NCBI GenBank assembly: GCA_026398235.1
Contig: JAPLTE010000040.1
Span: forward strand, 578-64,577
DNA: 64,000 nt
Source of the DNA: Verrucomicrobiota bacterium
Lineage (GTDB): Bacteria; Verrucomicrobiota; Verrucomicrobiia; Chthoniobacterales; Chthoniobacteraceae
Direction: 5' to 3'
The notes under the pieces were generated by a model that made no database searches, was not told the DNA's origin, and saw only the letters and a list, made by a program, of their open reading frames with translations. Numbering within the stretch: the stretch's first letter is position 1; each line of letters opens with the position of its first letter. Positions 27,789 to 45,792 of the stretch are shown here, one piece after another. The position numbers and the translations under genes are program-made.

Positions 27789-29039
27789 CTAGCGCTGGGA
27801 AAGCACCTGGCACTCGTAGGCTTTGACTTCGGCCAACCAGGCTGCGCCCACCGGCACATTCTGCCGTTTGCAATATTCGTCCCACACGGGGCCGAACGGA
27901 AGGCTCTTGGCCTCTTCCAGGAGCGCGAGCCGCGAAGTGTGGTCGCCCGCGTTTTCCGCCTGCCGCAAGGCGCTCGTCGGTTCCAGCAGGGCGAGCAAGA
28001 GGCATTTGATGGCGTTGCGGGTGCCGATGACCCATGCGGCGATGCGGTTGATGCTGGCGTCAAAGAAATCGAGCCCGATGTGGGTGCGGCCCAGGAAGTC
28101 GCCCCGCACGAGTTCTTCCATGATGCCGCGCGTGGCGTCATCGACGAGCACGACATGGTCGCTGTCCCACCGAACGCCCCGGCTGACGTGCAGGAGCAGT
28201 TCGGGCACGAACTGGAGCATGGAGGAGATTTTGTCCGAAAGGTTTTCGGTCGGGTGGAAGTGTCCCGCGTCCAAAGTGATGAGCTTCTGGTTTTTCACCG
28301 CGTAGCCCATATAGAACTCGTGCGAGCCGACGACGTATGATTCGGAGCCGATGCCGAACAGCTTGCTTTCGACCGCGTCGCGGTTGAAGGCCGGGTCGAT
28401 CGGTTCGGCAAAGATGGCGTCGAGCGAGGCTTCGAGGCGGGCACGGGGAGCTTTGCGGTCCACCGGCGTGTCTTTGTAGCCGTCGGGAATCCAGAAGTTT
28501 GTGATGCACGTTTTGCCGGTTTGCTTGCCCATGTCCGCGGCGATTTTGCGGCACGCGATGCCGTGCTCGATCCAGAATTGGCGCACTCCGGGGTCTTTGT
28601 GGGCGAGGGTGAAGCCGTCATTGGAGAGCGGGTGGGAGAAGTAGCTGGGGTTGAAGTCGAGGCCGAGGCCGCGCTCTTTGCACCAGTCGATCCAGACTTG
28701 GAATAAATCGGTGGTATACGCATTGCGCTCGACCTTTTTGCCATCGAGATCGGCATACAGGGCGTGCAGATTGAGCCGGTGTTTGCCGGGGATGAGCGCG
28801 AGGGCTTTATCCAGATCCTGCCGGAGTTGCCCGTTGGTGCGGGCTTTGCCGGGGTAGTTGCCGGTGGCCTGAATGCCGCCGCTGAGCGTCGCGTCCGGGT
28901 TTTCCGAACCGGCCACGTCGTCGCCCTGCCAGCAGTGGAGGGAGATCGGGATGCTTTGCAGCTTTTGGAGAGCGGCTTCGGTATTTACGCCGAGGGCGGC
29001 GTAGGCTTCTTGAGCGAGGGAATAGGCTGGTGTGCTCAT
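27789..29039 (-). CDS. rhaA: L-rhamnose isomerase
   Basis: Colinear with RhaA as I recall it from E. coli: [71 protein letters not shown]. Confidence 0.97.
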
Positions 29040-29079
29040 GTGCGGATCAAGGTTGGTTTTTATAAAACGTTCTAGAAGG

Positions 29080-30258
29080 CTAGTGGATGCCGAGGCCTTT
29101 CAGGTAGGTGCCCACGCCGATGATGATGGTGGAAAGAATAAGGGCCGCGATGCCGGAGCCGATGAGCCGGTGCGCTTTTTTGCTGGACCCTTTCCATTCG
29201 TGGAAAATCCATCCCCACATCGTGCTAAAAATAATAATGCTGGCCATGTGAAGCGTCCAACTGGCAAAGCCGAATTTGCCCATTTGCGTCTCGCCCATGG
29301 TGTAGAAGAAAAATTGGAAATACCAAGTGGCACCCGCAAGTGCGGAAAAGAGGTAGTTGCGCAGCCGGGGCACCTGCAATTCCGTATGAGTGGATGTGGC
29401 TACAGTGGCGACTCCGCCGCCGTGTTCGCCGCCGCCTTCACCGCCATGGTGGGCGTGTTCGGGACGGACTTCTGCGGCGAGGTACTGGTAACCCGTGCGG
29501 TTCTTGATGTTCAGGAGCACGCACCAGATGAAGTTGGTGGTAAAGCCACCGAGCAGCACCACAACCAACTTCGGCAGGCCCGTCCAAATTTCGGTGGTCC
29601 CGGCAAGTCCCGAGGCGTCGCCGATCGGCTTGCCAGCCGTGAGGGCGAAAGAGAAGCAGGCGCTCATGATGCCCGAGAAGGTCGCCACCAGAATGCCCTT
29701 GCTGAAGTTAAACTCCGCCACTGATTTCTTTTTCTCTTCCTCGGGCATCTCCTTTTCTTTGGTCAACCCGGCCATCGCAGCGATGGCAATGCCGAGTAAA
29801 CATACCCCTACGCCGGCGAGGGTGATCTGGCCGGGCGGGGTGGAGGCGATTTGCGCCAGCGTTTCAGGAACGGGAATGGTGCCGACAAAGGTCTTTAAAA
29901 ACGGCGGCAACAGCGTGCCGAACGCGGCGCAATATCCCAGCGCGATTCCCATGCCGAGCGACATTCCCAGATAGCGCATCGTAAGACCAAAGGTGAGCCC
30001 GCCCGCCCCCCACATCGCACCGAAAAAATAGGTCCACCAAAGGGTGGCCAACGATTGGCGGCTCAGAACCCCCAGCAAATCTTTCGTCATGAACCCGGCA
30101 AAAAACCAGGGACAGATAATCCAGGAAACAAAGCCACCGACCAGCCAATAGGTTTCCCAGGACCATTTGCGGACCTGCCGGTAGGGAACGTAAAATGAGC
30201 CGGAGGCCAAGCCGCCGAGCCAGTGAAAGAATACGCCAAGGAAGGGATTGGGGGTCAT
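29080..30258 (-). CDS. rhaT: L-rhamnose-proton symporter
   Basis: RhaT-type N-terminus ([30 protein letters not shown]), 10-TM DMT-like layout, adjacent to rhaA. Confidence 0.9.
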
Positions 30259-30305
30259 AAGGAGGGGGCTTTTACATCAGGGAGAAACCGAAAGAGGAGC
30301 GTTAT

Positions 30306-30579
30306 TAAGAAGCTGTCTAAAAATTAGAGCGGGGTGCGCAAGAGGGAGAAATGGGTTCTGAGAAGGCACGAGTGAGGAGCAGATCGGTTGATCTGTGACG
30401 AGCGAGGAACGCTCTCAGAGCCCGTTTATACCCTCTTGCCCGGAGGGTTGCGCATCTTTTGGCGCTGGCCTGCGTTGTGCGTCGGTCGCGTATCTGAAGA
30501 TATGCTCCCTCCGCACCGCCTTGGCCAACCCCAAAACCTGCTGCAACGCACCCCGCTCTAATTTTTAGACAGCTTCTTA
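30306..30579. repeat. 274-bp element bounded by perfect 33-bp terminal inverted repeats (MITE-like or long structured RNA)
   Basis: TAAGAAGCTGTCTAAAAATTAGAGCGGGGTGCG at 30306-30338 is the exact reverse complement of 30547-30579. The interior contains further short hairpins (CAGATCggttGATCTG, GAGCGaggaaCGCTC, CGGAGGG...CCCTCCG). Confidence 0.85.
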
Positions 30580-30631
30580 GAGCTTTTCCCCTCATTTGTA
30601 AATAGACGAACTGGCGCAACGCATATAAGAA

Positions 30632-31552
30632 ATGGCATGTATGAATGACCTTGCGTTCTACTTTCCAGACGGCGGGGCCTCCGAAATTTGGGGGGCTGCG
30701 GTCACTGCGTGCGGAAGGACGGGAGCGGTTCCCGGTGGCCCTTATCCTCCCAACCCGCGGCAACATCCCGGGGATCATCTTTTTTGGCTTCCCCAAGGGG
30801 GGCGCATTCTGGATTGCTATCAACTGCTTTACATTTCCTCCGGCAAGGGATGGTTTGAATCGACCGCCACGGGGAAAGTCGAAATGAAGGCCGGTTCGGC
30901 ATTCCTGCTTTTCCCCGAGGTTTGGCATCGCTATTCCCCAGACCCGGAGTCGGGTTGGACCGAGTATTTTATCGAACTGCGCGGGCCGAATTTGGAGCGG
31001 TTGCGGCAGGCCGGGGTGTTGCGGCCGCAAAATGCCGTGTTCCACCCCGGGCTGGATACCGAACTGGTCGAGGCTTTCCATGCGCTCCACCGCCTGGCCC
31101 GACAGGCGGGGGCCGGCGGAAGGGAGCAAATGGGCACGCTGGGAATGTACCTTCTGGCCCGGCTCATTTTTTCCAGCAGCGCCCGGGAACTGAGCCCGGA
31201 GGAAAAGGCGGTGCGGCAGACCGAATCGCGGATGCGGGAAAAACTGGGCGAAAGCTTCGACATGACCGAGCTGGCCCGGGAGTTTGGCGTCGGGTATGAC
31301 CGCTTCCGCCGCTTTTTTAAAGCGCTGACGGGCCTGCCGCCCAAGCATTATTACCGGAAACTGCAAATGCGGCGCGCGGAGGAGCTCCTGCTTCACACGG
31401 AACGCAACCTGGCGGAAATTGCGGAGGAACTCGGCTTTAACACCGCCTTTCACCTTTCAGCCGCTTTCAAGGAACACGCAGGGATCGCTCCGTCCCATTG
31501 GCGGGAGCGGCGCAGGGGAGTGGTGGATTTGCCCCAAGCTCTGCGTGATTGA
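30632..31552 (+). CDS. AraC-family transcriptional regulator (cupin-like sensor + HTH_18)
   Basis: The C-terminal dual HTH is DMTELAREFGVGYDRFRRFFKALTGLPPKHY...LAEIAEELGFNTAFHLSAAFKEHAGIAPSHWR. Confidence 0.9.
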   Translation: MACMNDLAFYFPDGGASEIWGAAVTACGRTGAVPGGPYPPNPRQHPGDHLFWLPQGGRILDCYQLLYISSGKGWFESTATGKVEMKAGSAFLLFPEVWHRYSPDPESGWTEYFIELRGPNLERLRQAGVLRPQNAVFHPGLDTELVEAFHALHRLARQAGAGGREQMGTLGMYLLARLIFSSSARELSPEEKAVRQTESRMREKLGESFDMTELAREFGVGYDRFRRFFKALTGLPPKHYYRKLQMRRAEELLLHTERNLAEIAEELGFNTAFHLSAAFKEHAGIAPSHWRERRRGVVDLPQALRD

Positions 31553-32445
31553 CCCCGCTCATAAATGTGTCAGAATGCGGGGCGTTGAAAGTCCCCCTGC
31601 ACATCGTCCTCGCCCGCCGGGAGCGCCTCGCGGCCATGCTTGCCCAGCATGGATACATGCCCGTGAGTGAATTGTGCTGCCGCCTCAAGGTTTCCGAGGC
31701 CACCGCGCGCCGGGATCTTGCGGCTCTCGCGGGGGAGAAGAAAATCAAGCGTACCTACGGGGGGGCGGTCTCGGAATTTGACAATCGCTTTCCCTCTTTT
31801 CTGGAGCGAACCGGGACCTCGCGCAGGGCGAAAACACAGATTGCGGCCGCTGCCCTTTCGTATCTTTCCCCAGGGTTGACGATCTTTCTGGATTCCGGCA
31901 CGACGATGTATGCCATTGCCGAGGCGTTCCGCGCCCAACCCGTGGTCCCGCTGACGGTCGTGACCTGCAACATTCCCGTCGGCGAAATGCTTGCCGCCAT
32001 TCCCGGGGTCCACGTTTTCCTTGTGGCGGGGCAGTTGCTCGCGCGGCAGTCCACCCTCCTTGGAGATGCGGCGGTGCGCAGCCTGCAATTCTGGCGCTTT
32101 GACGTGGCTTTTCTCTCCGCCGAGGGAATGGACCAGGCGGGGATCTGGAATTCCCAGCAGGCGATCGTTGCACAACAAAAAGTGACCCTCCAGCGGAGCA
32201 CGCGTTCGATTTTCTGTCTCGATGGAGGCAAACTCAATCGGCAGGCCCCGGACATCCTGCTGCCGTGGAGGGATGTGGATGTTCTGCTTACGGAAGTCCC
32301 TATGCAGAAGCTGATTGCATCGGGAATTGAAATCACTGCCAAGCAATATTGGCATGCTCCGGGAGGGGCGCAATCGTGTCCCCTGGAGCGGATCCAAGCC
32401 GGGGAACGCCCTGGGATTGAGGCGTTTCCCGTGGAGCTTCTATAA
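31549..32445 (+). CDS. DeoR-family transcriptional regulator
   Basis: RRERLAAMLAQHGYMPVSELCCRLKVSEATARRDLAALAGEKKIKRTYGGAV is the DeoR HTH. A DeoR C-terminal sugar-phosphate sensor domain follows (IFLDSGTT...). The start is uncertain: TTG 31549 overlaps the araC stop, and in-frame GTG/TTG codons lie at about 31567/31585. Confidence 0.85.
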   Translation: MTPLINVSECGALKVPLHIVLARRERLAAMLAQHGYMPVSELCCRLKVSEATARRDLAALAGEKKIKRTYGGAVSEFDNRFPSFLERTGTSRRAKTQIAAAALSYLSPGLTIFLDSGTTMYAIAEAFRAQPVVPLTVVTCNIPVGEMLAAIPGVHVFLVAGQLLARQSTLLGDAAVRSLQFWRFDVAFLSAEGMDQAGIWNSQQAIVAQQKVTLQRSTRSIFCLDGGKLNRQAPDILLPWRDVDVLLTEVPMQKLIASGIEITAKQYWHAPGGAQSCPLERIQAGERPGIEAFPVELL

Positions 32446-32451
32446 GGCACG

Positions 32452-32520
32452 AAAATTTTTTCCAAATTTTTTATTGACGAGTCAAAGGCTCCTGATATGA
32501 CTGAGGTCAATCATATAAAT
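32452..32520 (+). promoter_or_regulatory. Candidate promoter and paired operator half-site repeats upstream of the BMC operon
   Basis: AT-rich tract AAAATTTTTTCCAAATTTTTTA. TTGACG (32474-32479), a 16-nt spacer, then TATGAC (32496-32501). Two inverted repeats of the form TGAC-N-GTCAA: TTGACGAGTCAA (32474-32485) and TGACTGAGGTCAA (32498-32510). Confidence 0.4.
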
Positions 32521-32551: not shown

Positions 32552-33229
32552 ATGAGCACCGCATCCCCTGTTGATCACCGTTCTTCTGTTGAGGCACTCG
32601 TTCGTGAGGCGCTTTACCGGCAGATGGGGAGAAAAGCGCCCGCCGGACCGGCTCCGGTCTTGCTGGTGAACAGTTCGGCTCGCCACATGCACATCTCCCC
32701 GGAGAATTTGGAAGTGCTCTTCGGCAAAGGGGCCGAATTGACGGTGCACAAGATGCTTTACCAGGAGGGGCAGTTCGCTTCTCAGCAGACGGTGACGATG
32801 ATTGGGCCACGCAAGCGGATTATCCCCAATTTGCGCATCCTCGGCCCCTGCCGCAACCTGACGCAGGTGGAGTTATCCATCACCGACTCCGTCCAGCTCG
32901 GCATTGATATTCCGATCCGCGCTTCGGGGAATATCGAGGGAACCCCCGGGTGCTACATTATGGGGCCCAAGGGGATGCTGGAAATGAAGAACGGCGTCAT
33001 CCGGGCCTGGCGGCATGTGCATATGTCTCCGGAGGATGCGAAGCATTACGGGGTCAAGCACATGGAAACCGTCACCCTCAAAGTGACCGCCAAGGATTGC
33101 ACCACCCGTTTTGACGATCTGCTGGTGCGGGTCGATCCTACTTTTAAGCTCGAAGTCCACATCGACACCGACGAAGCCAATGCCTGCGACTTGGAGCACG
33201 CTTCCAAGGTGGAAATTTTCAAATCGTAA
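32552..33229 (+). CDS. pduL: PduL-type phosphotransacylase with N-terminal encapsulation-peptide-like helix
   Basis: Duplicated PduL repeats (SARHMHISPENLEVLFG... and AWRHVHMSPEDAKHYG...). HIDTDEANA. N-terminal amphipathic SVEALVREALYRQM followed by a Pro/Ala/Gly linker. Confidence 0.93.
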   Translation: MSTASPVDHRSSVEALVREALYRQMGRKAPAGPAPVLLVNSSARHMHISPENLEVLFGKGAELTVHKMLYQEGQFASQQTVTMIGPRKRIIPNLRILGPCRNLTQVELSITDSVQLGIDIPIRASGNIEGTPGCYIMGPKGMLEMKNGVIRAWRHVHMSPEDAKHYGVKHMETVTLKVTAKDCTTRFDDLLVRVDPTFKLEVHIDTDEANACDLEHASKVEIFKS

Positions 33230-33271: not shown

Positions 33272-33541
33272 ATGAGCGAAGCAATCGGACTAATTGAAAC
33301 TCGCGGCTACGTGGGCCTGGTGGAAGCCAGTGACGCCATGGTCAAAGCGGCGAACGTTGAACTCGTCAAATCCATCCAGATCGGCGGCGGTCTCATCACC
33401 ACGGTTGTCCGTGGCGATGTAGGCAGTGTCAAAGCCGCCGTGGATGCCGGAAAACAATCCGCCACGCGCGTCGGCAACCTCGTTGCCTCCCACGTGATCG
33501 CCCGTCCCGCGCCGGAACTCCTGGCGTTCTTCACCGCCTAA
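33272..33541 (+). CDS. BMC-H shell protein (Pfam PF00936 type), copy 1
   Basis: AIGLIETRGYVGLVEASDAMVKAANVELV...GGGLITTVVRGDVGSVKAAVDAG...HVIARP. Confidence 0.95.
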   Translation: MSEAIGLIETRGYVGLVEASDAMVKAANVELVKSIQIGGGLITTVVRGDVGSVKAAVDAGKQSATRVGNLVASHVIARPAPELLAFFTA

Positions 33542-33568: not shown

Positions 33569-33871
33569 ATGGCAGGACAAGCACTCGGAACCATCGAAAC
33601 CAAAGGCCTCGTTGCGCAGTTTGAAGCGACCGACGCCATGTTGAAAGCCGCCAACGTCGAGTTGATCGGCTGGGACAAAATCGGATCGGGCAACGTCAGC
33701 GTCTTCATTCGTGGCGACGTGGCAGCCGTCAAGGCTGCCGTCGAAGCCGGAGCCACCGCAGCGAGCGCGCTCGGCGAAGTCGTTGCCGTTCACGTCATCC
33801 CTCGTCCGCACGACGACCTCGCCAAGCTCGGAAAGTTCATTTCCGGCAAGGTTGTCGCCAACGGCAAGTAA
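33569..33871 (+). CDS. BMC-H shell protein, copy 2 (short C-terminal extension)
   Basis: [57 protein letters not shown]...HVIPRPH, plus a tail [19 protein letters not shown]. Confidence 0.95.
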
Positions 33872-33896: not shown

Positions 33897-35084
33897 GTGA
33901 AACCGAACCAAATCCTCGTTGCCAACATCGGCAGCACCTCGTTCAAGTTCCGCTTGATCGAGATGCCCGATGAGCGCGTGCTCGCCAAAGGCGGCATGGA
34001 GCGCATCGGCAGCGCGGATTCCACCTTCAAATACCAGCTCGGCAACGAGCCGGAGCAGAAGGGCGCGGCTGCGTTTCCGGATTATTCGGCGGCTATTGCG
34101 TTTGTGGAAAAAATCCTCGGCGGGTTTAAAAACCTGGCCGCGGTCGGCTTCAAGCCGGTGATGGCGCGTGGCATCTCGGGCACTCAACTGTTCGACGAGA
34201 AGGTGCTGCGCGCCATGGAAGAAGTGAATACCTTGCTTCCGGCCCACAATCCGCCTTACATCGCGGCGGTGCGCAGCTTCCACGCCTGCAACCCCGAGCT
34301 TCCCTGCATCGGCACCTTCGAGACGGCCTTCTATGATGAAGTGCCGCTGGAAAACCGGCGTTACCCGGTGCCGCTGGAATGGGAAAGTAAATATGGCATT
34401 CAGCGCCACGGCTTCCACGGGGCAAGCCACCGCTACGTCACCCAACGCGCTGCGGAATTGCGCGGCACCCAGGCGGGGCGGATGATTTCGTGCCATCTCG
34501 GCGGCAGCTCCTCCATTGCCTGTGTCCGCGACGGAGTCGCCATTAATTCGAGCTGGGGCATGACCCCGCAGAGTGGTCTGCCGCAGAACAACAGGGTGGG
34601 GGACTTCGATGTCTTCGCCCTTATCTATCTCGCCCGGGATCTCGGTCTCGGCATCGACGCGGTGGAGAAAGCGCTCACCACGCAATCGGGCCTCAAAGGG
34701 ATGTCCGGGTTGCCCTCGGGCGATGTGCGCGATCTCGTGGGCGCAGCCGAATCGGGCAATGCAAACGCCGTCACCGCGCTCCATATTTTCGCGGGCAGCA
34801 TCCGCAAATACATCGGCCAGTTCCTGGTCGAAATGAACGGCGCGGACGTTTTGATTTTCACTGCCGGCATCGGCGAAAACGAGGCTCCTTTGCGCGAACA
34901 AGTGTGCGCCAACCTCGACTTCTGCGGTCTCGAGCTCGACCTGGAGGCCAACCGCGCCACGAAGGCCGTCGAGGCTGTTATTTCCACGCCGCGCTCCAAG
35001 ATCGAAGTGCGCGTAATCCCCACCAATGAAGAAATCATCATCGCCCGCAACGCGTGGCAAAAACTCTCAAAAACCTCAGCTTAA
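33897..35084 (+). CDS. ackA: Acetate/propionate-family kinase
   Basis: [44 protein letters not shown] and RVIPTNEE are acetate kinase signature segments. GTG 33897 is in frame with the track ORF (33711) but avoids a 160-nt overlap with BMC-H copy 2. Confidence 0.92.
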
Positions 35085-35100: not shown

Positions 35101-35382
35101 ATGGCACAACAAGCAATCGGAATGATCGAAACCCGCGGCCTCACTGCACTCGTCGAAGCGACGGATGCGATGCTCAAGTCCGCCAACGTTGAACTCGTCG
35201 GCCCCATGGTCCAGGTCGGTAACGCCCTCGTGACCGTCGCAGTCACCGGCGATGTCGCCGCTGTGAAAGCCGCAACTGAAGCCGGCAAAATTGCCGCGCA
35301 ATCCCTCGGCGAAGTCGTGAGCGTCGCCGTTATCGCCCGTCCGCATGGCGATCTCACCGCCGTTCTTCCCAAGGCCAAATAA
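35101..35382 (+). CDS. BMC-H shell protein, copy 3
   Basis: [58 protein letters not shown]...AVIARPH. ATG 35101 (the track ORF start at 35026 lies inside ackA). Confidence 0.93.
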
Positions 35383-35388
35383 TAACAA

Positions 35389-37908: not shown

Positions 37909-38193
37909 ATGAGAATGGGAACTGTCATAGGCCGCGTGACCCTTTCGGTGAAGAACCCAAAATTCTTCGGTGAACGGTTGCTCCTCACTTTGCCTTGGAA
38001 ACGCGAGACCTTTGAGGGCAAGGAACTGTTCGACCCTTCCATCGTCGTTTTCGATCAACTCGGGGCGGGTGTTGGCGACAAGATCGCCATCAGCGAAGGC
38101 GCCGAAGCGGCCTGTCCCTTTCAGAAACCAACCCCTGTCGATGCGTACTGTGCAGCGCTCATCGACGCTCATTTTTATAATCAACAACCATGA
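37909..38193 (+). CDS. BMC-P pentamer shell protein (EutN/CcmL family), copy 3
   Basis: MRMGTVIGRVTLSVKNPKFFGERLLLTLP...VVFDQLGAGVGDKIAISEGAEA...AYCAALID. ATGA overlap with the downstream aldolase. Confidence 0.85.
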   Translation: MRMGTVIGRVTLSVKNPKFFGERLLLTLPWKRETFEGKELFDPSIVVFDQLGAGVGDKIAISEGAEAACPFQKPTPVDAYCAALIDAHFYNQQP

Positions 38194-39245
38194 AACTATT
38201 CGCCCAAAAAGAAGCTGAAGCGTTCGTCAAAACCGGCGCAAAAGAATTCCGGTACAATCGCGACATCCGCCTGACTCCGGGCGCGAAAGACATCTTCACC
38301 GAAGCTGACGTAAAGCTCGTTTTTGACGAGGGCGCTGCGGCTCCTGCTGCCGCCCCGGTTTCCGGCGGAGCCGCTTCCTCCGGAACTCCCGATGACGAGA
38401 AGCTCTGGAATACCGCCGAAGCGACAAAGCTCAAGCAACAAATCTGCGATATTGGACGCCGCATCTGGATGCGCGAATATTGCGACGGCAACGGCGGCAA
38501 CATCTCCTGCCGACTCGGAGCCGATCGCTACATCTGCACGCCCACCGGCGTGAGCAAAGGGTTCATGACGCCCGACATGCTTTGCATGGTCGATGGCAAT
38601 GGCAAGCAACTCGCGGGAACTTGGAAACGCACGAGCGAATTCCTCAGCCACGCGGCCATTTACAAGAGCACTCACGAGGCGTTCTCTGTCTGCCACGCGC
38701 ATCCGTGCTACGCAGGCGCATTCGCCGTGAAGGGGATGCAGCCGCCACCCCGCTTGATTCCTGAGTTGGAAGTGTTCGTCGGCACCGTGGCCTACGCTCC
38801 TTACATGACTCCCGGCAGCCCCGAAATGGCCGACGAAATCTTCAAGCGCGCCCCGAAGCACCAGTCGATCATCATGGGCAACCACGGCGTGATCACTTGG
38901 GGTAAATCCGTCGAGGATGCCTATTTCAAAATGGAGATCACCGACGCCTACTGCCGCACGATCATCCATGCGCAGTCGTTGCCCGGCGGCACGGCCATTC
39001 CCGCAGAAGGGATGAGCGACTTGATGAAGATCAAGCAGAGCATCGGTCTCCCCGACGATCGCTACGACTTGAAGCCCGCGCAACTCGCCGAGGTCGATCC
39101 TTGGGCCGAGGTTTGCGGACAGCACGGCTGCTCTTCGCCCGTCACACCTTGGAACCCGCAGTCGAATGTCGAAGCGGCTCCGGCGGAAATGGAAGCGCTT
39201 GTTCAAAAATTGACCGACGAAATCGTCAAAAACCTCTCCAAATAA
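38190..39245 (+). CDS. Class II aldolase (FucA/RhaD-like, PF00596 type) with N-terminal extension and C-terminal encapsulation-peptide-like helix
   Basis: Core: GNGGNISCRL, SEFLSHAAIY, VCHAHPCYAGAF (His-x-His), IMGNHGVITWG (third His). About 85 aa of extra N-terminal sequence with an Ala/Pro/Gly linker. C-terminal EMEALVQKLTDEIVKNLSK. Confidence 0.9.
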   Translation: MKLFAQKEAEAFVKTGAKEFRYNRDIRLTPGAKDIFTEADVKLVFDEGAAAPAAAPVSGGAASSGTPDDEKLWNTAEATKLKQQICDIGRRIWMREYCDGNGGNISCRLGADRYICTPTGVSKGFMTPDMLCMVDGNGKQLAGTWKRTSEFLSHAAIYKSTHEAFSVCHAHPCYAGAFAVKGMQPPPRLIPELEVFVGTVAYAPYMTPGSPEMADEIFKRAPKHQSIIMGNHGVITWGKSVEDAYFKMEITDAYCRTIIHAQSLPGGTAIPAEGMSDLMKIKQSIGLPDDRYDLKPAQLAEVDPWAEVCGQHGCSSPVTPWNPQSNVEAAPAEMEALVQKLTDEIVKNLSK

Positions 39246-39252
39246 TCTCTCT

Positions 39253-40176
39253 ATGAAAGTCGTTATCATCGGCGGTGGCGGACGCGTGGGATCCTGCGCG
39301 GCATTTGCCCTTCAATGTTCGGGAGTTGTCAAAGAGATCGTCATGCTCGACGCCAATCAAGCGGCGGCGGAAGGCGAAGCGCTCGACCTCCTCCATGGCG
39401 CTGCCTTCTGCGCCGACCAGAATATTTACGCTGGCACGTATGCCGACTGCGCGACCGCCGACGTGATCTGCATCACCGCCGGTCTGCGTCGCAAGCCGGA
39501 CGAATCCCGTCTGGATCTAATCAACCGCAACGTCACCCTCTTTAACGGCATTCTGGAAAGCGTCAAAGCGGCAGGGATGAAACGCGAGGCGATCATTCTC
39601 GTGGTTTCCAATCCGGTGGACATCCTCACGCAGCTCGCCGTGGAGCAACTCGGGTTGCCCGTCAACCAAGTGCTCGGTCTCGGCACTTTGCTCGATACGA
39701 GCCGCTTCTGTTCGCTCATCGCCAGCACCCTCAAGCTCGCCCCTTCGCAAGTGCGCGCCATGATCTTGGGTGAACACGGCGACACGATGGTGCCGATCTG
39801 GTCCTCCGCAACGGTGGACGGTTTTCCGCTGCTGAAATTCCCGGGCATCACCCCGATGTTCCAGAATCAGCTTTTTGAGCGCACGCAGAAGAGCGGCGCG
39901 GAAGTGATCTCCCGCAAGGGCGGCGCGGGTTACGCCGTCGGCGTTGCGATTCGCGAAGTCATCGACACGATCGCTTTGGACGGACGCCGCATCCTGCCTG
40001 TTTCAAGCCATATCAAAGGCGCATATGGCATCCGCGACATCTCCCTCAGCGTGCCGACGGTCGTGGGCCGCACAGGAGTGATCCAACATGTCGAAGTGGA
40101 GCTTTGGCCCAAGGAATTGCAAGGATTGCAGGCTTCCGCCAAGGCACTCAAAGATACCCGCGCAAAAGTCAAATAG
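39253..40176 (+). CDS. L-lactate/malate dehydrogenase family NAD-dependent dehydrogenase
   Basis: Rossmann motif KVVIIGGGGRVGS. Substrate loop ITAGLRRKPDESRLDL. VSNPVD. LDTSRF (Arg171 equivalent). LGEHGDT (catalytic His). Confidence 0.9.
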   Translation: MKVVIIGGGGRVGSCAAFALQCSGVVKEIVMLDANQAAAEGEALDLLHGAAFCADQNIYAGTYADCATADVICITAGLRRKPDESRLDLINRNVTLFNGILESVKAAGMKREAIILVVSNPVDILTQLAVEQLGLPVNQVLGLGTLLDTSRFCSLIASTLKLAPSQVRAMILGEHGDTMVPIWSSATVDGFPLLKFPGITPMFQNQLFERTQKSGAEVISRKGGAGYAVGVAIREVIDTIALDGRRILPVSSHIKGAYGIRDISLSVPTVVGRTGVIQHVEVELWPKELQGLQASAKALKDTRAKVK

Positions 40177-40196: not shown

Positions 40197-41672
40197 ATGA
40201 GCGAACATCACTACATCGCGTGCGATTTGGGTGCAGACAGTGGCCGGGTGATTCTCGGCACGCTTCGGGAAGGGAAGATCACTTTGGAAGAGGTGCATCG
40301 CTTTTCCAACGGAGCCTCCAAAATCAACGGATCGTTGCGTTGGAATATCCTGCGCATTTTTGAGGAACTTAAAGCGGGTCTGCGCAAAGTCGCCGAGAAA
40401 AAGGTCAGCGCGGAAAGCCTCAGTGTGGACTCGTGGGGGGTTGATTACGTCCTCTTTAATCAACGCCAGCCGTTGCTTGCGCTGCCTTGGCATTACCGGG
40501 ATTCGCGCACCGATGTCCCCTATGCGGCCACGCGCCAAAGGGTGGGGGATGCGACCCTTTTTGAGCAGACAGGCCTCCAGTTTCTCTCTTTTAACACGCT
40601 CTTTCAATTGATCGACGATGTGGAGAACAACTCGGATGTGATTTCCATTGCCGACAGTTTCCTCAACATCGCGGATTATCTCAATTACCTGTTTAGCGGC
40701 GTGGCGCTTCAAGAGGAGAGCAACGCGAGTACCACGCAAATATACAATCCGAAAACGCGGAACTGGTCCAAAGAGCTGATCGCTGCGTGCCATTTGCCCG
40801 AACGGATTTTCCCGCAGATTGTCCCGTCAGGCACTCCGATCGGGAAACTGCTCCCTGCGATCCAGGAGGAAACGGGCCTTAACGAAATCCCCGTGGTGGC
40901 GACCTGTTCGCATGACACCGGCGCAGCCGTGGCCGCTGTTCCCGCTGAGGGCGAAGGCTGGGCTTACCTGAGTTCGGGAACCTGGTCGCTGGTTGGAGTG
41001 GAGCTTCCGGCTCCGCTCATCAACGAGCAAGTGCGCTGTTTTAATTTCACCAACGAAGCCGGTTACGGCGGCACCACGCGGTTTCTGAAAAACATCGTCG
41101 GGCTGTGGCTCTTGCAGGAGTCGCGGCGCGATTGGATTCGGCAGGGGATGGCTTTGAGCTTTGATGATCTGGACCGCCAGGCCGAAGCCGCCGAGCCGTT
41201 CCGTTCGCTGATCAATCCCAACGCGGCCTGCTTCCTCAAGCCCGACAATATGCCCGCGAAAATCGCCGCCTATTGCCGCGAAACCGGACAATTGGCCCCC
41301 GAAACTCCGGGCCAGGTGACGCGCTGTATTTTTGAAAGCCTCGCCCTCTCTTATCGGCAGATGCTGGCGCAAATCGAGCAGCTCACGGGGCAGACGATCA
41401 CTCGCCTGCACATCGTCGGCGGCGGCAGCAAGAGTTCGCTGCTCAACCAATATGCAGCCAACGGAACCGGACGGACCGTGTTTACCGGCCCCGTGGAGGC
41501 GACTGCTTGCGGCAACATTTTGATTCAGGCACTTGCCTTGGGGCATATCGACTCCTTGAAAGCTCTGCGCAAAACGGTTCGGGAATCGTTCGAAATCACT
41601 CCCTACCAGCCACAGGGAAGTGAACAATGGGCCGCAGCCTTTGAGCGCTTTTCCCAGCTCAATCTCGCCTAA
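40197..41672 (+). CDS. rhaB: Rhamnulokinase
   Basis: FGGY kinase fold. The N-terminus YIACDLGADSGRVILG...LEEVHRFSNG parallels E. coli RhaB (VAVDLGASSGRVML...LREIHRFNNG, from memory). HIVGGGSKSSLLNQ. Confidence 0.92.
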   Translation: MSEHHYIACDLGADSGRVILGTLREGKITLEEVHRFSNGASKINGSLRWNILRIFEELKAGLRKVAEKKVSAESLSVDSWGVDYVLFNQRQPLLALPWHYRDSRTDVPYAATRQRVGDATLFEQTGLQFLSFNTLFQLIDDVENNSDVISIADSFLNIADYLNYLFSGVALQEESNASTTQIYNPKTRNWSKELIAACHLPERIFPQIVPSGTPIGKLLPAIQEETGLNEIPVVATCSHDTGAAVAAVPAEGEGWAYLSSGTWSLVGVELPAPLINEQVRCFNFTNEAGYGGTTRFLKNIVGLWLLQESRRDWIRQGMALSFDDLDRQAEAAEPFRSLINPNAACFLKPDNMPAKIAAYCRETGQLAPETPGQVTRCIFESLALSYRQMLAQIEQLTGQTITRLHIVGGGSKSSLLNQYAANGTGRTVFTGPVEATACGNILIQALALGHIDSLKALRKTVRESFEITPYQPQGSEQWAAAFERFSQLNLA

Positions 41673-42964
41673 TGACTTTTTCCCTTCTCCACCCTCGCGA
41701 CCAGATCGTCGCGATTATGGCGCGCATCTACGGCCATGGCATGACCACCACCTCGGGCGGCAACATCTCCATCCGCGACGAGAACGGCGATGTCTGGATC
41801 ACCCCGGCCCGTGTGGACAAAGGGAGCCTTCGGGCAGCCGACATTGTGCGGATTTCCCCGGACGGATCGCTGGAGGGCAACCACCCGCCTTCGTCGGAAT
41901 ACCCGTTCCACCTGAGCATCTACAAAGCCCGCCCGGATATTGATGCGATCATCCACGCCCACCCGTGTGCGCTCGTCAGCTTCAGCATTTGCGGGCAGGT
42001 GCCCAACACCCGGATTTTCCCGGAAGCCTGGAATGTGTGCGGCAAACCGGGCCTTGCGCCTTATGCGTTGCCGGGGAGCCAAAAACTGGGCGAGAATATC
42101 GCTGCGGAATTTGCCGCCGGGGAACAACCCTACTGCGTCATATTGCAGAATCATGGAGTTGTGGTGGGAGCGGAGGATTTGACCGTTGCCTATCAACGCC
42201 TGGAGAGTCTTGAGTTTGCGGCGGAGACGATCATCAACGCCTGCGTTCTGGGGAAAGTGCATTATTTGGGCGACGAGCAGATCGCCCTTTCCAATCAGCC
42301 GCGCAACATCTTGCCCGAGCACCCACCGGAGCCGGCAACCGTCCGCGAACGGGAATTGCGCAAAGCAATTTGCGATTTCGTGCACCGCTCCCACGCCCAC
42401 CGCTTGATGACCAGCACCAAGGGGAGCTTTTCGGCTCGGATCGATGCCGAAAGTTTTCTCATCACTCCTTACAATGTGGATCGGCGCGACCTCGATCTGG
42501 CCGACCTTGTGGTTGTCCGCAACGGAACGCGCGCTGCGGGCCAGACCCCCAGCCGGGCCGTGGGACTCCATCGCGCCATCTATGATGCGCATCCCGAGAT
42601 CCACGCCATTGTCAACGCGCTGCCGGTGCACGCCGCCGCGTTTTGCGCGAGCGAATCGCCGTTTGACACCCGAACCATTCCTGAGAGCTACTTGTTTTTG
42701 AAGGATGTCGGCACCATTCCTTTCGAGCAGCAATACGGGAGTCTCCAGACGATCTCATCATTTATTGGACCCAAAAATCCTGTAGCTTTGCTTGAAAACA
42801 ACGGTGTTCTTGTCGCGAGCCGTTCCGTGCTCGACGCCTTTGACCGGCTGGAAGTGCTTGAGGCCACGGCGGCCGCCATTCTGCGCAGCCGCAGCCTCGG
42901 CGCAGTCACTCCGATGTCCGACGCGGTCATTCAGGAATTGACGGAAGCATTCCCCTCGATGTAA
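41672..42964 (+). CDS. Tandem class II aldolase/adducin-domain protein (intact N-domain, degenerate C-domain)
   Basis: Domain 1: SGGNISIRD, SSEYPFHLSIY, IIHAHPCALV, LQNHGVVVG. Domain 2 has the same fold pattern, but the corresponding positions read PSRAVGLHRAIY, IVNALPVHAA, LENNGVLVA. ATGA-type junction with the rhaB stop. Confidence 0.85.
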   Translation: MTFSLLHPRDQIVAIMARIYGHGMTTTSGGNISIRDENGDVWITPARVDKGSLRAADIVRISPDGSLEGNHPPSSEYPFHLSIYKARPDIDAIIHAHPCALVSFSICGQVPNTRIFPEAWNVCGKPGLAPYALPGSQKLGENIAAEFAAGEQPYCVILQNHGVVVGAEDLTVAYQRLESLEFAAETIINACVLGKVHYLGDEQIALSNQPRNILPEHPPEPATVRERELRKAICDFVHRSHAHRLMTSTKGSFSARIDAESFLITPYNVDRRDLDLADLVVVRNGTRAAGQTPSRAVGLHRAIYDAHPEIHAIVNALPVHAAAFCASESPFDTRTIPESYLFLKDVGTIPFEQQYGSLQTISSFIGPKNPVALLENNGVLVASRSVLDAFDRLEVLEATAAAILRSRSLGAVTPMSDAVIQELTEAFPSM

Positions 42965-42978: not shown

Positions 42979-43695
42979 GTGAAAATCACGCTGTTCATCC
43001 CCTGTTTCATTGATGCTTGTTTCCCAAAAGCCGGGGTGAGTGCGGTCGAAATTCTGGAGCGCCTGGGGCACACGATCGATTACCCAAAAGAGCTCACCTG
43101 TTGCGGGCAACCGGCGTTTAACTCCGGGTATTGGGAGGAATCCCGCACCACGGCGATCAAAGTCTTGGAGCGCCTCAAGGCTACGGAAGTCGTGGTGATC
43201 GTCTCCGGTTCGTGCGGCGCGATGATCAAGAATTTTTACCCGGAACTTTTCGCGGGCACCGAGCACGAAGAAGCCGCCCGTACTCTCTCGGCCAAAGTGT
43301 ATGAGTTCTCCGATTTCCTTGTCACCAAACTGGGCGTCACGGACCTCGGCGCACAATTTCCTCACAAGGTGACCTTCCATGACGGCTGCCACGGTCTGCG
43401 CGAGCTCGGCATCAAGCAACAGCCGCGCAAACTGCTTTCGCACGTGCGCGGGCTTGAGTTGGTCGAGATGGGCGAGGTGGAAAGCTGCTGCGGTTTCGGC
43501 GGCACTTTCTCGGCCAAATTCCCGATGATCTCCACCGCGATGGGTGAAAATAAATGCGGCTCGGCGCTGGAGACCGGAGCGGAATACATTGTATCCAACG
43601 ATTCGAGCTGCCTCATGCACATCCAGGGGTTGCTCGATCGTGAGGGAAAACCGTTGCGCACCATTCACTTGGCCGAGGTGTTGAATCACCGTTAG
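42979..43695 (+). CDS. lutA: Lactate utilization protein A (Fe-S oxidoreductase, CCG domains)
   Basis: LFIPCFIDACFP...LTCCGQPAFNSG and HDGCHGLRE...ESCCGFGGTF are the duplicated CCG motifs. Confidence 0.92.
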   Translation: MKITLFIPCFIDACFPKAGVSAVEILERLGHTIDYPKELTCCGQPAFNSGYWEESRTTAIKVLERLKATEVVVIVSGSCGAMIKNFYPELFAGTEHEEAARTLSAKVYEFSDFLVTKLGVTDLGAQFPHKVTFHDGCHGLRELGIKQQPRKLLSHVRGLELVEMGEVESCCGFGGTFSAKFPMISTAMGENKCGSALETGAEYIVSNDSSCLMHIQGLLDREGKPLRTIHLAEVLNHR

Positions 43696-43705
43696 CCACC
43701 ACACC

Positions 43706-45106
43706 GTGAGCATGACTCCTGCCGCCTCTCAATTTAAGAAAAACGCGATTGCTCTGACTGCGGACCTGCGGCATCGCGCCTTGATCCGCACGGCGCTCAA
43801 AAAATACGAGGTCGTGCGCGATGACAAAGTTTCGCGATTCCAGAATTGGCAATCCGCGCGGCAGAGTGCAGCGGAAATCAAGTGGGACGCCGTAAACCAT
43901 CTCGACGCCCATTTGATCGAGTTTGCGCGGAACCTCGAAGCGCGCGGCACGCAGGTCCATTGGGCCAGCAACGCTGCGCAGGCGCGCGAAATCATCATCG
44001 GGATCATCCAGGAGCGCAAAGCCCATTCCATCATCAAATCCAAGGTGATGACCGGCGAGGAGATCCACCTCAACGAGGCACTGGAAAAAGCGGGATTTGA
44101 CGTGGTCGAGTCCGACCTCGGTGAATACATCGTCCAGCTCCGGCACGAACCACCCTACCATTTTGTTTTCCCCGCGATGCACCTCACGCGCGGCGAAATC
44201 AGCGATCTCTTTTCAAAGGAACTCGGCACCGCGTCCACCGACAGCCCGGAGGAGTTGACGATGATTGCCCGCCGGGTGTTGCGCGACAAATATATTGCGG
44301 CGGACATCGGCATCAGCGGCGCGAATTTTGGCATCGCGGAGACCGGAATGATTTCCATCACCGAGAACGAAGGCAACGCGCGGCTCACGTGCGCGCTGCC
44401 CAAGGTGCATATTGCGTTGATGGGGATCGAAAAGGTTTTGCCGAAGCTCGAAGACCTCGCCCTGTTCCTCCCGATGCTGGCAACAGCAGGAGCGGGCCAG
44501 GTGATGACAGGCTATAACACCCTGTATGGCGGACCGCGTCAGCCGGGCGAAGCGGACGGCCCCGAGGCGTTCCATGTCGTCCTGCTCGACAACAACCGGA
44601 CGCAGTTGCTGGCTGATCCCGAGCAGCGCGATGCCCTCCATTGCATCCGCTGCGGCGCTTGCCTCAACGTCTGTCCCATTTACAAGAACATCGGCGGCCA
44701 TGCCTACGGAGCCACTTATCAAGGGCCCATCGGAGCCGTGATCACCCCGCATTTGCGCGGGCTCCAGCAGTGGAAACATCTGAGCTTTGCCTCCTCGCTG
44801 TGCGGAGCGTGCACGCAGACCTGCCCGGTGAAGATCAACTTGCATCACCACCTGCTGCAAAGCCGGCGCAACGCCATCGCGCAAAAACCGGTCTGGTGGG
44901 AAAAGCCGCTTTTCCAAGGTCTGGCTTTCCTCTTTAATCACGCGGGGCTCTTCTCGCTGGGGATGAAGCTCGGGCGGATCGGACAGGTGTTTTATCCTTT
45001 GGTCAAAGGGACGCGGCTTGATCCCGCCAGCGCATGGACGAAGTCGCGCGAACTCCCCAAAATCGCTCCCCAAACCTTCCGCGAATGGTGGCAAACCCGA
45101 AAATGA
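43706..45106 (+). CDS. lutB: Lactate utilization protein B (4Fe-4S ferredoxin-type + LUD domain)
   Basis: LHCIRCGACLNVCPIY and SSLCGACTQTCPVKI cluster motifs, with an N-terminal LUD domain. GTG 43706 start. Confidence 0.93.
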   Translation: MSMTPAASQFKKNAIALTADLRHRALIRTALKKYEVVRDDKVSRFQNWQSARQSAAEIKWDAVNHLDAHLIEFARNLEARGTQVHWASNAAQAREIIIGIIQERKAHSIIKSKVMTGEEIHLNEALEKAGFDVVESDLGEYIVQLRHEPPYHFVFPAMHLTRGEISDLFSKELGTASTDSPEELTMIARRVLRDKYIAADIGISGANFGIAETGMISITENEGNARLTCALPKVHIALMGIEKVLPKLEDLALFLPMLATAGAGQVMTGYNTLYGGPRQPGEADGPEAFHVVLLDNNRTQLLADPEQRDALHCIRCGACLNVCPIYKNIGGHAYGATYQGPIGAVITPHLRGLQQWKHLSFASSLCGACTQTCPVKINLHHHLLQSRRNAIAQKPVWWEKPLFQGLAFLFNHAGLFSLGMKLGRIGQVFYPLVKGTRLDPASAWTKSRELPKIAPQTFREWWQTRK

Positions 45107-45792
45107 ACGAACGCGAAAACATCCTCGGCAGAATCCGCGAAGCTTTGAGCGTCCCCGCTCCCGTTCCTGGTGCGCATTCCGGCGAACCGCCCCACGCCGT
45201 CTCCGAGTGCGAAGCAGCCACCCATATCCCCGAGTGGTTGCCGCGCGTGGGGAGCACCTTTGAAGAACGCCTTGCCTTGTTTCGGACCAATGCCGCGGAA
45301 TTGAAAGCCGACTTTGTGCTGCTCGATTCGCCGGAGGAATTGATTGCCAAATTACGCGAGATCGCCGCTGCCGAGAGCTGGAAAAAAGTGGCGACCCATT
45401 CCAATGCATTAACCGATGGGGCTTGCGACGCTTTGGATTTGCCGGTCTTGCGCACGGATAACGGCTACGACCCGCGCGACATGGAAACGTGCGACGCGGG
45501 GATCAGCGCTTGCGACGCGCTCATCGCCCAAACCGGCAGCGTGCTCGTCACGAGCCAAAGCGCCGGGGGCCGCGCCTTGTCGGTCTTGCCGCCTCACCAC
45601 GTGGTCCTCGCCCGGCGCGAGCAACTCCTCGCGGATTTGCCCGCTGCCTTTGCTCTGCTTAAGACCAAATACGCCCCCGGCTACCCGAGTCTCATCTCTT
45701 TTATTACCGGGCCCAGCCGCACCGGCGACATTGAGCGCATCCTGGTTCTGGGCGCACACGGTCCAAAGAAGCTGACGATTCTTTGCGTCTAA
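45103..45792 (+). CDS. lutC: Lactate utilization protein C (LUD domain)
   Basis: MNERENILGRIREAL is a typical LutC start. ISACDALIAQTGSVLV and ITGPSRTGDIE are present. ATG 45103 overlaps the lutB stop (ATGA). Confidence 0.88.
   Translation: MNERENILGRIREALSVPAPVPGAHSGEPPHAVSECEAATHIPEWLPRVGSTFEERLALFRTNAAELKADFVLLDSPEELIAKLREIAAAESWKKVATHSNALTDGACDALDLPVLRTDNGYDPRDMETCDAGISACDALIAQTGSVLVTSQSAGGRALSVLPPHHVVLARREQLLADLPAAFALLKTKYAPGYPSLISFITGPSRTGDIERILVLGAHGPKKLTILCV

Follow-up and report, generated by a model that had tools for sequence, protein, structure and literature searches.

A probable L-rhamnose catabolic locus built around a PVM-type bacterial microcompartment in a Verrucomicrobiota genome

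The locus for the Planctomycetes-Verrucomicrobia (PVM) type of bacterial microcompartment (BMC) was reportedly described from Planctopirus (Planctomyces) limnophila by Erbilgin et al. in 2014. Here we examine a locus of the same kind, which occupies positions 27789 to 45792 of a 64-kb stretch of DNA (hereafter, the window) from a Verrucomicrobiota bacterium, and in which an earlier note had traced a self-contained route from L-rhamnose to pyruvate. PVM loci are defined by an aldolase as signature enzyme, a DeoR regulator, an acetate kinase, a dehydrogenase of the lactate/malate dehydrogenase (LDH/MDH) family and many BMC-P genes (PMC4207490), and 285 of them are included in a 2021 catalogue (PMC8217296). 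Among their products, PvmB is a phosphotransacylase, PvmG a kinase and PvmJ an aldehyde dehydrogenase (PMC13608581), and PvmA has been described as a probable repressor in P. limnophila, in which the promoter PpvmB lies between the DeoR gene and pduL (PMC11958385). Microcompartments have been seen in a verrucomicrobial isolate, Limisphaera, grown on rhamnose (PMC13608581). In other phyla, rhamnose regulons have been linked to lldEFG (= lutABC), with pyruvate as the end product (Rodionova et al. 2013; PMC3870299).

The region in the window is very probably a complete L-rhamnose catabolic locus arranged around a canonical PVM-type metabolosome. It contains 20 genes, every one of them confirmed by family profiles (Pfam and NCBIfam searches of the open reading frames [ORFs] of the window), and its two ends coincide exactly with the stop codons of rhaA (27789) and lutC (45792). 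The minus strand carries rhaT-rhaA and the plus strand a string of 18 co-directional genes from araC to lutC, in the order araC, deoR, pduL, BMC-H, BMC-H, ackA, BMC-H, BMC-P, the gene of a coenzyme A (CoA)-acylating aldehyde dehydrogenase (ALDH), BMC-P, BMC-P, and, after this third BMC-P, a class II aldolase, an LDH/MDH-family dehydrogenase, rhaB, a tandem aldolase, lutA, lutB and lutC. Both the 18-gene string and the gene assignments of the earlier note stood up to the profile searches, with rhaB falling below the curated cutoffs. The tight gene spacing that it had reported holds for 13 of the 17 plus-strand junctions, which are of 42 nucleotides (nt) or less or overlap, and fails at four long ones, namely, deoR to pduL (106 nt), the third BMC-H to the first BMC-P (178 nt), ALDH to the second BMC-P (179 nt) and the second to the third BMC-P (127 nt). 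Start codons were refined for ackA (GTG at 33897), the third BMC-H (35101) and lutC (45103).

To place the locus among its relatives, the 20 proteins were mapped by tblastn onto 80 Verrucomicrobiota loci (80 genomes, L002 to L081), retrieved from among more than 548 relatives of the ALDH found in contigs with one genome per species. The order pduL-H-H-ackA-H-P-ALDH-P-P-aldolase was present in every one of the 80 long enough to show it, and, by the positions of PvmA, PvmB, PvmG and PvmJ, the window is collinear with pvmABDEGHIJKLMNO (PMC11958385, PMC13608581), a comparison of published order, not of sequence. This shared order, in the related loci as in P. limnophila, assigns the locus to the known PVM kind. 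As in the published model, a class II aldolase is encoded together with shell genes, an acylating ALDH and PduL, an acetate kinase and a DeoR regulator, an LDH/MDH-domain dehydrogenase replaces the iron-type alcohol dehydrogenase, and the shell is rich in BMC-P with single-domain BMC-H proteins. The PVM classification is thus sustained by profiles, synteny and the published model alike, and the remark that the core is not new was correct, given the 80 loci with the same order and the pvm cluster of P. limnophila. The host also fits, since PVM loci belong to Planctomycetota or Verrucomicrobiota and the relatives of the window are Verrucomicrobiota: the best ALDH relatives (94% and 93% identical) come from metagenome-assembled genomes (MAGs) labeled Verrucomicrobiota/Spartobacteria, the closest relatives in general are MAGs of Verrucomicrobiota, Spartobacteria or Chthoniobacterales, and NCBI lists, under "MAG: Verrucomicrobia bacterium", proteins that match the tandem aldolase and the dehydrogenase with 100% identity. 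Verrucomicrobial PVM or tandem-aldolase genes also turned up on contigs labeled as Acidobacteriia, Bifidobacteriaceae/Bifidobacterium or Gloeobacteraceae MAGs (L065, L076, L080, P0049), which is probably binning contamination.

The core begins with pduL (32552-33229; this and the following genes are on the plus strand unless stated), whose 225-amino-acid (aa) phosphotransacylase matched PF06130 with 239 bits and NF011652 with 242 (cutoff, 209). Read by inspection, its N-terminal ca. 35 aa resemble an encapsulation peptide, with the amphipathic stretch SVEALVREALYRQM. Two BMC-H genes follow, encoding 89 aa (33272-33541; PF00936, 97 bits) and 100 aa (33569-33871; PF00936, 97.8 bits), and then the GTG-started gene of a 395-aa kinase of the acetate/propionate family (33897-35084; PF00871, 314.8; TIGR00016, 299.9 against 293.4), equivalent to PvmG and presumed to be a lactyl-phosphate kinase. 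The third BMC-H (93 aa; 35101-35382; NF012018, 108.5 bits) has a single PF00936 domain, as do the other two. The first vertex protein, BMC-P 1 (102 aa; 35561-35869; PF03319, 99 bits), precedes the CoA-acylating ALDH (479 aa; 35899-37338; EutE/PduP-type model NF011927, 618.5 against 403; PF00171), which is the PvmJ equivalent and bears an N-terminal amphipathic stretch, and two more vertex proteins come after it, BMC-P 2 (87 aa; 37518-37781; PF03319, 69.6 bits) and BMC-P 3 (94 aa; 37909-38193; PF03319, 59.9 bits). BMC-P 1 and BMC-P 2 are 31% identical, and BMC-P 3 gave no tblastn match to either at an E value of 1e-3 or less, as expected of a divergent BMC-P triplet, itself a described shell pattern (PMC8217296). 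No further ORF with a BMC domain appeared in the 64-kb window, tandem-domain (BMC-T) shell genes included, so the absence of BMC-T noticed earlier is real for the window. Some Limisphaerales-type PVM loci (L058, L075 and L078) have extra minus-strand BMC-H-like genes (35 to 44% identity) upstream of a divergent deoR, and shell complements therefore vary among lineages.

The signature class II aldolase, the PvmN equivalent (351 aa; 38190-39245; PF00596, 148.9 bits over residues 83 to 257), is built of an N-terminal module of ca. 45 aa, a linker, the aldolase domain, a second linker and a C-terminal amphipathic peptide. This C terminus, EMEALVQKLTDEIVKNL, stands behind a Pro/Ser/Ala-rich linker and is predicted to be an encapsulation-type peptide, such as has been described at the C terminus of BMC aldolases (PMC4594438). 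The motifs EALVQKLTDEI, at the C-terminal end, and LTPGAKD, at the N-terminal end, are kept in nearly all related loci whose match covers those ends. As a separate observation, residues 1 to 47 (38190-38330) form a module with an LTPGAKD/LTPSARD motif in nearly all of the retrieved PVM aldolases. The N-terminal 60 aa had no meaningful match in Pfam or the PDB, and the literature consulted mentions an encapsulation peptide only at the C terminus.

The genes that surround the core are those expected for rhamnose. On the minus strand, rhaA (27789-29039) encodes a 416-aa L-rhamnose isomerase (PF06134, 684 bits; NF002203, 688.8 against a cutoff of 572) and rhaT (29080-30258) a 392-aa L-rhamnose/H+ symporter (NF010024, 492.2 against 468; PF06379). 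Downstream of the core, rhaB (40197-41672; 491 aa; FGGY_N and FGGY_C domains) encodes a probable rhamnulokinase, for which the rhamnulokinase model TIGR02627 (508.6) far exceeds the fuculokinase model (115.6). The string ends with lutA (42979-43695; 238 aa; two CCG domains, PF02754, 114.6 bits), lutB (43706-45106; 466 aa; a LUD domain and 4Fe-4S clusters, TIGR00273, 453.5 against 444.8; PF02589, PF13183, PF11870) and lutC (45103-45792; 229 aa; LUD domain, PF02589, 101 bits), which shares its first 4 nt with the end of lutB. The profile matches thus give the adjacent CCG, LUD plus 4Fe-4S, and LUD subunits of LutABC. In the tblastn map, lutABC or lutABC-like genes also adjoin the PVM operons of L015, L017, L018, L026, L027, L030, L037 and L075, a flanking seen in loci of Opitutales, Methylacidiphilales and Limisphaerales type, and lutABC is found as well in BMC-free verrucomicrobial rhamnose clusters (L203-205, L209).

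With gene identities from the profiles, and the chemistry taken from the published PVM model (PMC6620236, PMC4594438) and from established enzyme families, the following route may be proposed. Rhamnose would be imported by RhaT, isomerized to rhamnulose by RhaA and phosphorylated to rhamnulose-1-phosphate by RhaB. The class II aldolase with the predicted C-terminal encapsulation-type peptide would then cleave rhamnulose-1-phosphate to dihydroxyacetone phosphate and L-lactaldehyde inside a shell presumably built of the three BMC-H and three BMC-P paralogues. The acylating ALDH would turn L-lactaldehyde into lactyl-CoA with formation of NADH, PduL would convert lactyl-CoA to lactyl-phosphate and recycle the CoA, and the acetate kinase homologue would release L-lactate and ATP. 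Finally, LutABC would oxidize lactate to pyruvate, while the regeneration of NAD+ is attributed, by inference, to the LDH/MDH-family enzyme. The route from rhamnose to pyruvate put forward in the earlier note agrees with the profile searches, the synteny and the published PVM model.

Several points weigh against this reading. The best named match of RhaB is a rhamnulokinase, yet its scores miss the cutoffs of TIGR02627 (508.6 against 527.95) and NF007925 (446.5 against 639). Neither a mutarotase (rhaM) nor a rhamnosidase was found in the 64-kb window. A second aldolase, coupled to rhaB and lacking encapsulation, makes it possible that rhamnulose-1-phosphate is not cleaved inside the shell. The dehydrogenase has no encapsulation peptide visible in its sequence, and it keeps all the residues that bind a 2-oxoacid, together with an arginine at position 102, a poor fit to the published lactaldehyde reduction. 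A long operon moreover assumes transcriptional read-through across three strong hairpins. The enzyme questions and the hairpins are taken up below.

The 307-aa LDH/MDH-family dehydrogenase (39253-40176; Ldh_1_N, PF00056, and Ldh_1_C, PF02866) is the PvmO equivalent. It closes the core in 32 of the 80 related loci and is again the last gene of the PVM operon in two further long contigs; it is also the best conserved protein of the operon, with 82 to 87% identity where the ALDH has ca. 75%. Residue 102 is the main discriminator between LDH and MDH, and the replacement Q102R is said to convert the former into the latter (Wilks et al. 1988). Alignment to the LDH structures 1A5Z and 1LDB placed an Arg at the Gln102 position (GLRRKPDESR opposite G(V/A)(P/N)QKPGETR), which confirms the MDH-like specificity residue of the earlier note, and the equivalents of R109, D168, R171 and H195 are all present. 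The stretch GLRRKPDESR was invariant in 32 of 32 PVM-linked orthologues, with LDTSR and GEHGD invariant or nearly so; Arg102 is therefore a property of the family, not particular to this locus. Such a residue pattern would fit an anionic 2-oxoacid better than lactaldehyde.

These features bear on how the compartment recovers its NAD+. The published role of the enzyme, lactaldehyde reduction, was assigned by elimination, as "the only gene... that could regenerate NAD+" (PMC4207490), and we consider, tentatively, that NAD+ may instead be restored through a 2-oxoacid/2-hydroxyacid shuttle, in place of a conversion of half the lactaldehyde into 1,2-propanediol. Oxaloacetate, or some other anionic 2-oxoacid, would be the acceptor used by the Arg102 dehydrogenase, and the malate so formed would leave the shell and be reoxidized outside, and all of the lactaldehyde carbon could reach lactate and then pyruvate through LutABC. 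Besides that assignment, the Arg102 context, its invariance, the strong conservation of the protein and its terminal position in the two additional contigs speak for such a shuttle. On the other side, the protein is overall nearer to LDHs than to MDHs in the PDB and in NCBIfam while passing neither cutoff (276.2 against 283 for the MDH model NF004863; 293.8 against 303.55 for the L-LDH model TIGR01771), and the NCBI annotation pipeline (PGAP) names it only "lactate/malate dehydrogenase family protein". Its lack of a visible encapsulation peptide counts against the shuttle too, several PVM loci have no dehydrogenase gene beside the operon, and direct evidence for propanediol formation may exist in the original PVM study. 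The general proposal, in which the Arg102 dehydrogenases of PVM operons would be oxaloacetate-type reductases and PVM compartments would export reducing equivalents by a malate/oxaloacetate-like shuttle, appears rather unlikely to us. If it were true, aerobic Verrucomicrobia with LutABC could oxidize all lactaldehyde carbon to pyruvate, where otherwise half would be lost as 1,2-propanediol. The substrate of the Arg102 enzyme, that is, the route of NAD+ recycling, is the main question raised by the locus; it is family-wide and could revise the textbook PVM scheme.

A second question of the same breadth, and with the same potential to revise that scheme, is what the 430-aa tandem protein with the class II aldolase fold (41672-42964) does. 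It contains two PF00596 stretches, and the start of its gene overlaps the end of rhaB by 1 nt (translational coupling). Its N-domain has an intact metal site (SSE76, H95-A-H97, N-H161-G). The C-domain shows PSR295, N315-A-L317 and N-N377-G at the corresponding motifs and is thus without the catalytic Glu and the three His ligands (E73, H92, H94 and H155 in the reference, FucA of Escherichia coli); the pseudo-domain suspected in the earlier note is real, since all zinc and catalytic residues are lost from it. The degenerate domain is nonetheless highly conserved. An AlphaFold2 model (predicted local distance difference test score, 92.8) has two halves that each resemble FucA/YgbL, and a structure search with it returned only single-domain matches of the FucA/YgbL type, with no solved structure that spans both halves. 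The protein belongs to a large family, in which the best 120 matches listed are at least 63% identical, and the organism-named members among them are almost all verrucomicrobial. The gene usually adjoins rhaB, either with a PVM operon or with rhaEW, and is sometimes found alone.

From these features, the tandem protein would be a conserved partner of RhaB, most likely an aldolase or epimerase directed at rhamnulose-1-phosphate outside the shell, and it is a candidate for an undescribed enzyme of rhamnose catabolism. A stronger version, to which we give limited credence, is that this protein and not the encapsulated aldolase handles rhamnulose-1-phosphate, by cytosolic cleavage or by C4 epimerization to fuculose-1-phosphate; fuculose-1-phosphate would then be essentially the substrate of the shell aldolase, and what enters the compartment would be lactaldehyde or fuculose-1-phosphate. 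Such a role is suggested by the translational coupling to rhaB and by the adjacency of the two genes in all of the rhamnose contexts inspected (L002, L003 and L032; Luteolibacter, L206/L207; the BMC-free L203-205 and L209), and it matches the absence of a tandem aldolase gene from the retrieved PVM loci with a fuculokinase-like kinase (33 to 36% identity to RhaB). In the N-domain, Glu and all three His ligands are retained, and L-ribulose-5-phosphate 4-epimerase has the same fold. Nevertheless, P. limnophila requires its compartment for growth on fucose and on rhamnose (PMC4207490, PMC8217296), and some members of the family lie outside any rhamnose context. The BMC-free clusters argue in the same direction. 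Their order, rhaA-rhaM-tandem aldolase-rhaB-rhaEW-lutABC (L203-L205, L209), means that they hold both the tandem protein and an apparently intact RhaE domain, and a second rhamnulose-1-phosphate aldolase is not obviously needed there. That their RhaE domain might be degenerate, leaving the tandem protein as the sole aldolase, was ruled out, as HxH and QHG are kept.

Two regulators stand between the rhaT-rhaA unit and the core. The AraC-family protein (306 aa; 30632-31552; HTH_18, PF12833, 2.3e-21; cupin-type AraC_binding, PF02311, 4.2e-15) has RhaS and RhaR as its best named relatives, at scores far under their cutoffs. The DeoR-family protein (31549-32445; PF08220 and PF00455) is the PvmA equivalent; its start is uncertain, being either the TTG at 31549, which overlaps the araC stop, or possibly a later codon ahead of residue 22. 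Both had been recognized in the earlier note without being listed among the plus-strand genes, to which they belong, since the longer minus-strand ORFs there (30317-31453, 31570-32397 and 31755-32510), considered as regulators, match no family and were ruled out. The deoR gene precedes pduL in most related loci.

Upstream of pduL we located a candidate operon promoter and operator (32468-32520, plus strand), in which TTGACG and GATATG are separated by ca. 17 nt and the latter overlaps the palindrome ATATGA-N10-TCATAT. Most related loci in which deoR is co-directional show the same layout (TTGAC, ca. 17 nt, TATGA...TCAT palindrome) before pduL, and the palindrome is a candidate operator for DeoR/PvmA. 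As a broader pattern, the pduL upstream regions of L004 to L052 share a TTGAC/ATGA-N10-TCAT site across Chthoniobacterales, Opitutales and Methylacidiphilales PVM loci, and Limisphaerales-type loci, with a divergent deoR, have a different conserved motif, GGAAGATTTTGCAAGA. Given the conserved promoter-like site, the 18-gene string probably forms at least two transcription units. The organization would then be a divergent rhaT-rhaA unit, araC(-deoR), and a long operon that begins at the conserved candidate promoter/operator before pduL, takes in the shell and core genes and probably also includes rhaB, the tandem aldolase and lutABC.

Three of the long junctions inside this operon hold structured DNA, each time directly before a BMC-P gene (fold z-scores were computed against dinucleotide shuffles). 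Element A, a palindromic insertion of 178 nt (35383-35560), extends from the stop of the third BMC-H gene to the start of BMC-P 1, with arms of ca. 35 nt (35389-35423 and 35515-35549) and a fold z of -4.7. Its site is empty in L002, L003 and L004, where the junction reads TAAATG, and in L109 and L122, whose proteins on both sides are 100% identical to those of the window, only a few nt separate the genes, so that element A is missing there too. Element B, also a palindromic insertion, of 179 nt (37339-37517), lies between ALDH and BMC-P 2 and belongs to the arm family of element A with a different interior (arms 88 to 89% identical to those of A; fold z, -5.8); it occupies the orthologous site in L003, L109 and L122, and L002 and L047 lack it, having spacers of 5 to 7 nt there. 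Element C, an inserted hairpin between BMC-P 2 and BMC-P 3 (37782-37908), has 38-nt arms (37806-37843 and 37856-37893) made of GGAACTCA repeats, a T-rich tail and a fold z of -8.0. Only L047 has it as well, and L002, L003 and L004 are without it; the insertion altered the last ca. three codons of BMC-P 2, whose stop in those three relatives overlaps the start of BMC-P 3 (ATGA). An Rfam search of positions 26000 to 47000 gave only eukaryotic microRNA-precursor models on hairpin C, far below gathering scores, which we regard as hairpin artefacts. The three structured repeats singled out by the earlier note are hence real, but they are strain-variable insertions and not conserved features of the operon.

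The arm family of elements A and B, with arms of ca. 35 nt, a core of ATGAATKATGAAACGCT / AGCGTTTCATMATTCAT and unrelated interiors, was found at six independent sites. The four further copies (L186, ca. 5170-5400; L124, ca. 600-660; L170, ca. 30-220; L145, ca. 2500-2690) lie, judging by eye from the flanking translations, between glutamate-synthase genes, before an ATP-synthase beta-like gene, before a UDP-glucose-dehydrogenase-like gene and at one other site. At all six, the same arm precedes the downstream ATG by ca. 10 to 20 nt. A metagenome scan with the 17-mer core of the arm gave 120 matches, most of them chance or unrelated, with the full arm only in L109/L122, L124, L145, L170 and L186. 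There was no target-site duplication at the junction between the third BMC-H and BMC-P 1, the one with a clean empty site, and no cognate transposase turned up in the window, where no search aimed at transposases was made. Elements A and B have terminal inverted repeats, several copies and a presence/absence polymorphism, as expected of elements like miniature inverted-repeat transposable elements (MITEs).

Correia/NEMIS elements of Neisseria, repetitive extragenic palindromic (REP) sequences, bacterial interspersed mosaic elements (BIMEs) and bacterial MITEs are intergenic palindromic mobile elements. Like them, the elements of the window are short (127 to 274 nt), non-coding and strictly intergenic, have long terminal inverted repeats, vary among strains, occur at multiple sites and form long RNA hairpins, and one has a promoter-like pair of hexamers. 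They differ from the known elements in that copies share arms and not interiors, and in the missing target-site duplication at the one clean site. Neither an Rfam match above threshold nor a specific report in the literature search assigns them to a described family. The three spacers are best read as recent palindromic insertions of a MITE/REP-like type generic to Verrucomicrobiota and not as ancestral regulatory parts, judging from their sequences and distribution; a regulatory side effect is possible.

Other palindromic DNA in the window is of similar build. The divergent rhaT/araC control region is mostly filled by a structured element of 274 nt (30306-30579), whose perfect 33-nt inverted repeats (30306-30338 and 30547-30579) close two long internal hairpins into a Y shape (-165.7 kcal/mol; z = -13.1) and have only these two copies in the window; it probably is a recent palindromic insertion as well. 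A further hairpin, at 1497-1572, has 26-nt arms made of three GACGCAAA repeats, and arms of short tandem repeats are common to this hairpin, hairpin C and an element in L004.

A functional role for the three spacers, as attenuators, RNase III sites or portable promoters that would lower or uncouple BMC-P expression, seems unlikely to us, although a number of observations fit it. All three precede a BMC-P gene, and across the 80 loci the junctions most often of at least 90 nt are again those between the third BMC-H and BMC-P 1 (37%) and between ALDH and BMC-P 2 (44%). In those operons, 91 of 140 intra-operon spacers of at least 90 nt (65%) fold with z < -3. In addition, no other sigma70-like match in the locus is as good as TTCATA-17-TATAAT (35520-35548), which lies in the right arm of element A, and the position of the arm relative to the downstream ATG is the same at all six sites. 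Against this, each insertion is missing from relatives with flanking proteins 93 to 100% identical, and none can therefore be required; their sequences differ between lineages, and the same arm family precedes unrelated genes. A special enrichment of long inverted repeats in PVM operons was also rejected, with 0.15 per kb inside and 0.10 per kb outside, a 1.5-fold density close to that expected from the denser gene junctions and hence not PVM-specific. In the window itself, three of six long inverted repeats fall in the 7.6-kb core, numbers too small for a conclusion. The same insertions, one of them altering the last codons of BMC-P 2, might also suggest a decaying or non-functional copy, disrupted by mobile elements, in which the compartment is not built. 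This we consider extremely improbable, because all 20 reading frames are intact and of full length against the family models, the insertions are strictly intergenic and the orthologues are strongly conserved. As recent insertions, the strain-variable hairpins show a rapid gain of structured spacers in tightly coupled operons of Verrucomicrobiota, and their presence or absence offers natural with/without pairs for effects on shell-protein stoichiometry.

The neighbors of the locus are functionally unrelated to it: genes for polysaccharide export on the upstream side and one for a DegT aminotransferase on the downstream side. Directly upstream of rhaA, the minus strand carries a capsule/exopolysaccharide export set (21780-27543), apparently without relation to the locus, composed of a Wzc-like P-loop protein, a Wza-like Poly_export/SLBB protein and a weak beta-barrel outer membrane protein. 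Composition gave no signal of horizontal transfer, as GC content is flat across the locus (0.57 to 0.60).

The locus is well preserved but ordinary, and its oddities are either family-wide or recent insertions of small mobile hairpin DNA. Its value is that of a clean, fully linked reference, with uptake, two regulators, organelle and lactate oxidation in one block of 18 kb, which makes it useful both for rebuilding a PVM compartment in a heterologous host and for annotating verrucomicrobial MAGs of freshwater and soil, habitats in which the turnover of deoxy sugars matters ecologically.

Compared with other rhamnose systems, the resemblance to E. coli rhaBAD-rhaT-rhaSR is limited to the orthologous functions of RhaT, RhaA and RhaB and to an AraC-family regulator at the locus, which in the window scores far under the RhaS/RhaR cutoffs. 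The window lacks a RhaD orthologue, cleavage is assigned to FucA-like class II aldolases, and the fate of lactaldehyde differs. The BMC-free RhaEW clusters (PMC3870299; L203-205, L209) follow the same route from rhamnose through rhamnulose-1-phosphate, lactaldehyde and lactate to pyruvate, and L203-205 and L209 share rhaA, rhaB, the tandem aldolase-fold gene and lutABC with the window. However, a soluble fused aldolase/dehydrogenase, RhaEW, oxidizes lactaldehyde in them, with no CoA intermediates, ATP yield or shell.

Other PVM loci of Verrucomicrobiota have the core order, the dehydrogenase motif and the N- and C-terminal extensions of the aldolase in common with the window. The block rhaB-tandem aldolase-lutABC directly downstream of the core is found only in the closest relatives, L002 and L003, and in part in L025 and L032. 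In L004 (85% ALDH identity), rhaA is directly divergent from deoR, without rhaT, araC or the downstream block, and Opitutales loci have a fuculokinase-like gene and lutABC in place of the rhaB block. In Luteolibacter (L206/L207), rhaB and the tandem aldolase lie beside a PVM operon. The gathering of uptake, regulators, microcompartment and lactate module in one locus, stressed by the earlier note, is true, and in full it occurs only in L002 and L003; each module recurs elsewhere, though, and the link between lutABC and rhamnose had been published (PMC3870299).

The closest described system remains the PVM locus of P. limnophila, which has the same gene inventory and order, signature aldolase and BMC-P triplet; the predicted encapsulation-type peptide at the aldolase C terminus and the candidate promoter between the DeoR gene and pduL also have counterparts there. 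The locus in the window differs in its host, of the Verrucomicrobiota and not the Planctomycetota, in the addition of rhaT-rhaA, the AraC-family regulator, rhaB, the tandem aldolase-fold protein and lutABC, and in the recent palindromic insertions at three of its intergenic junctions.

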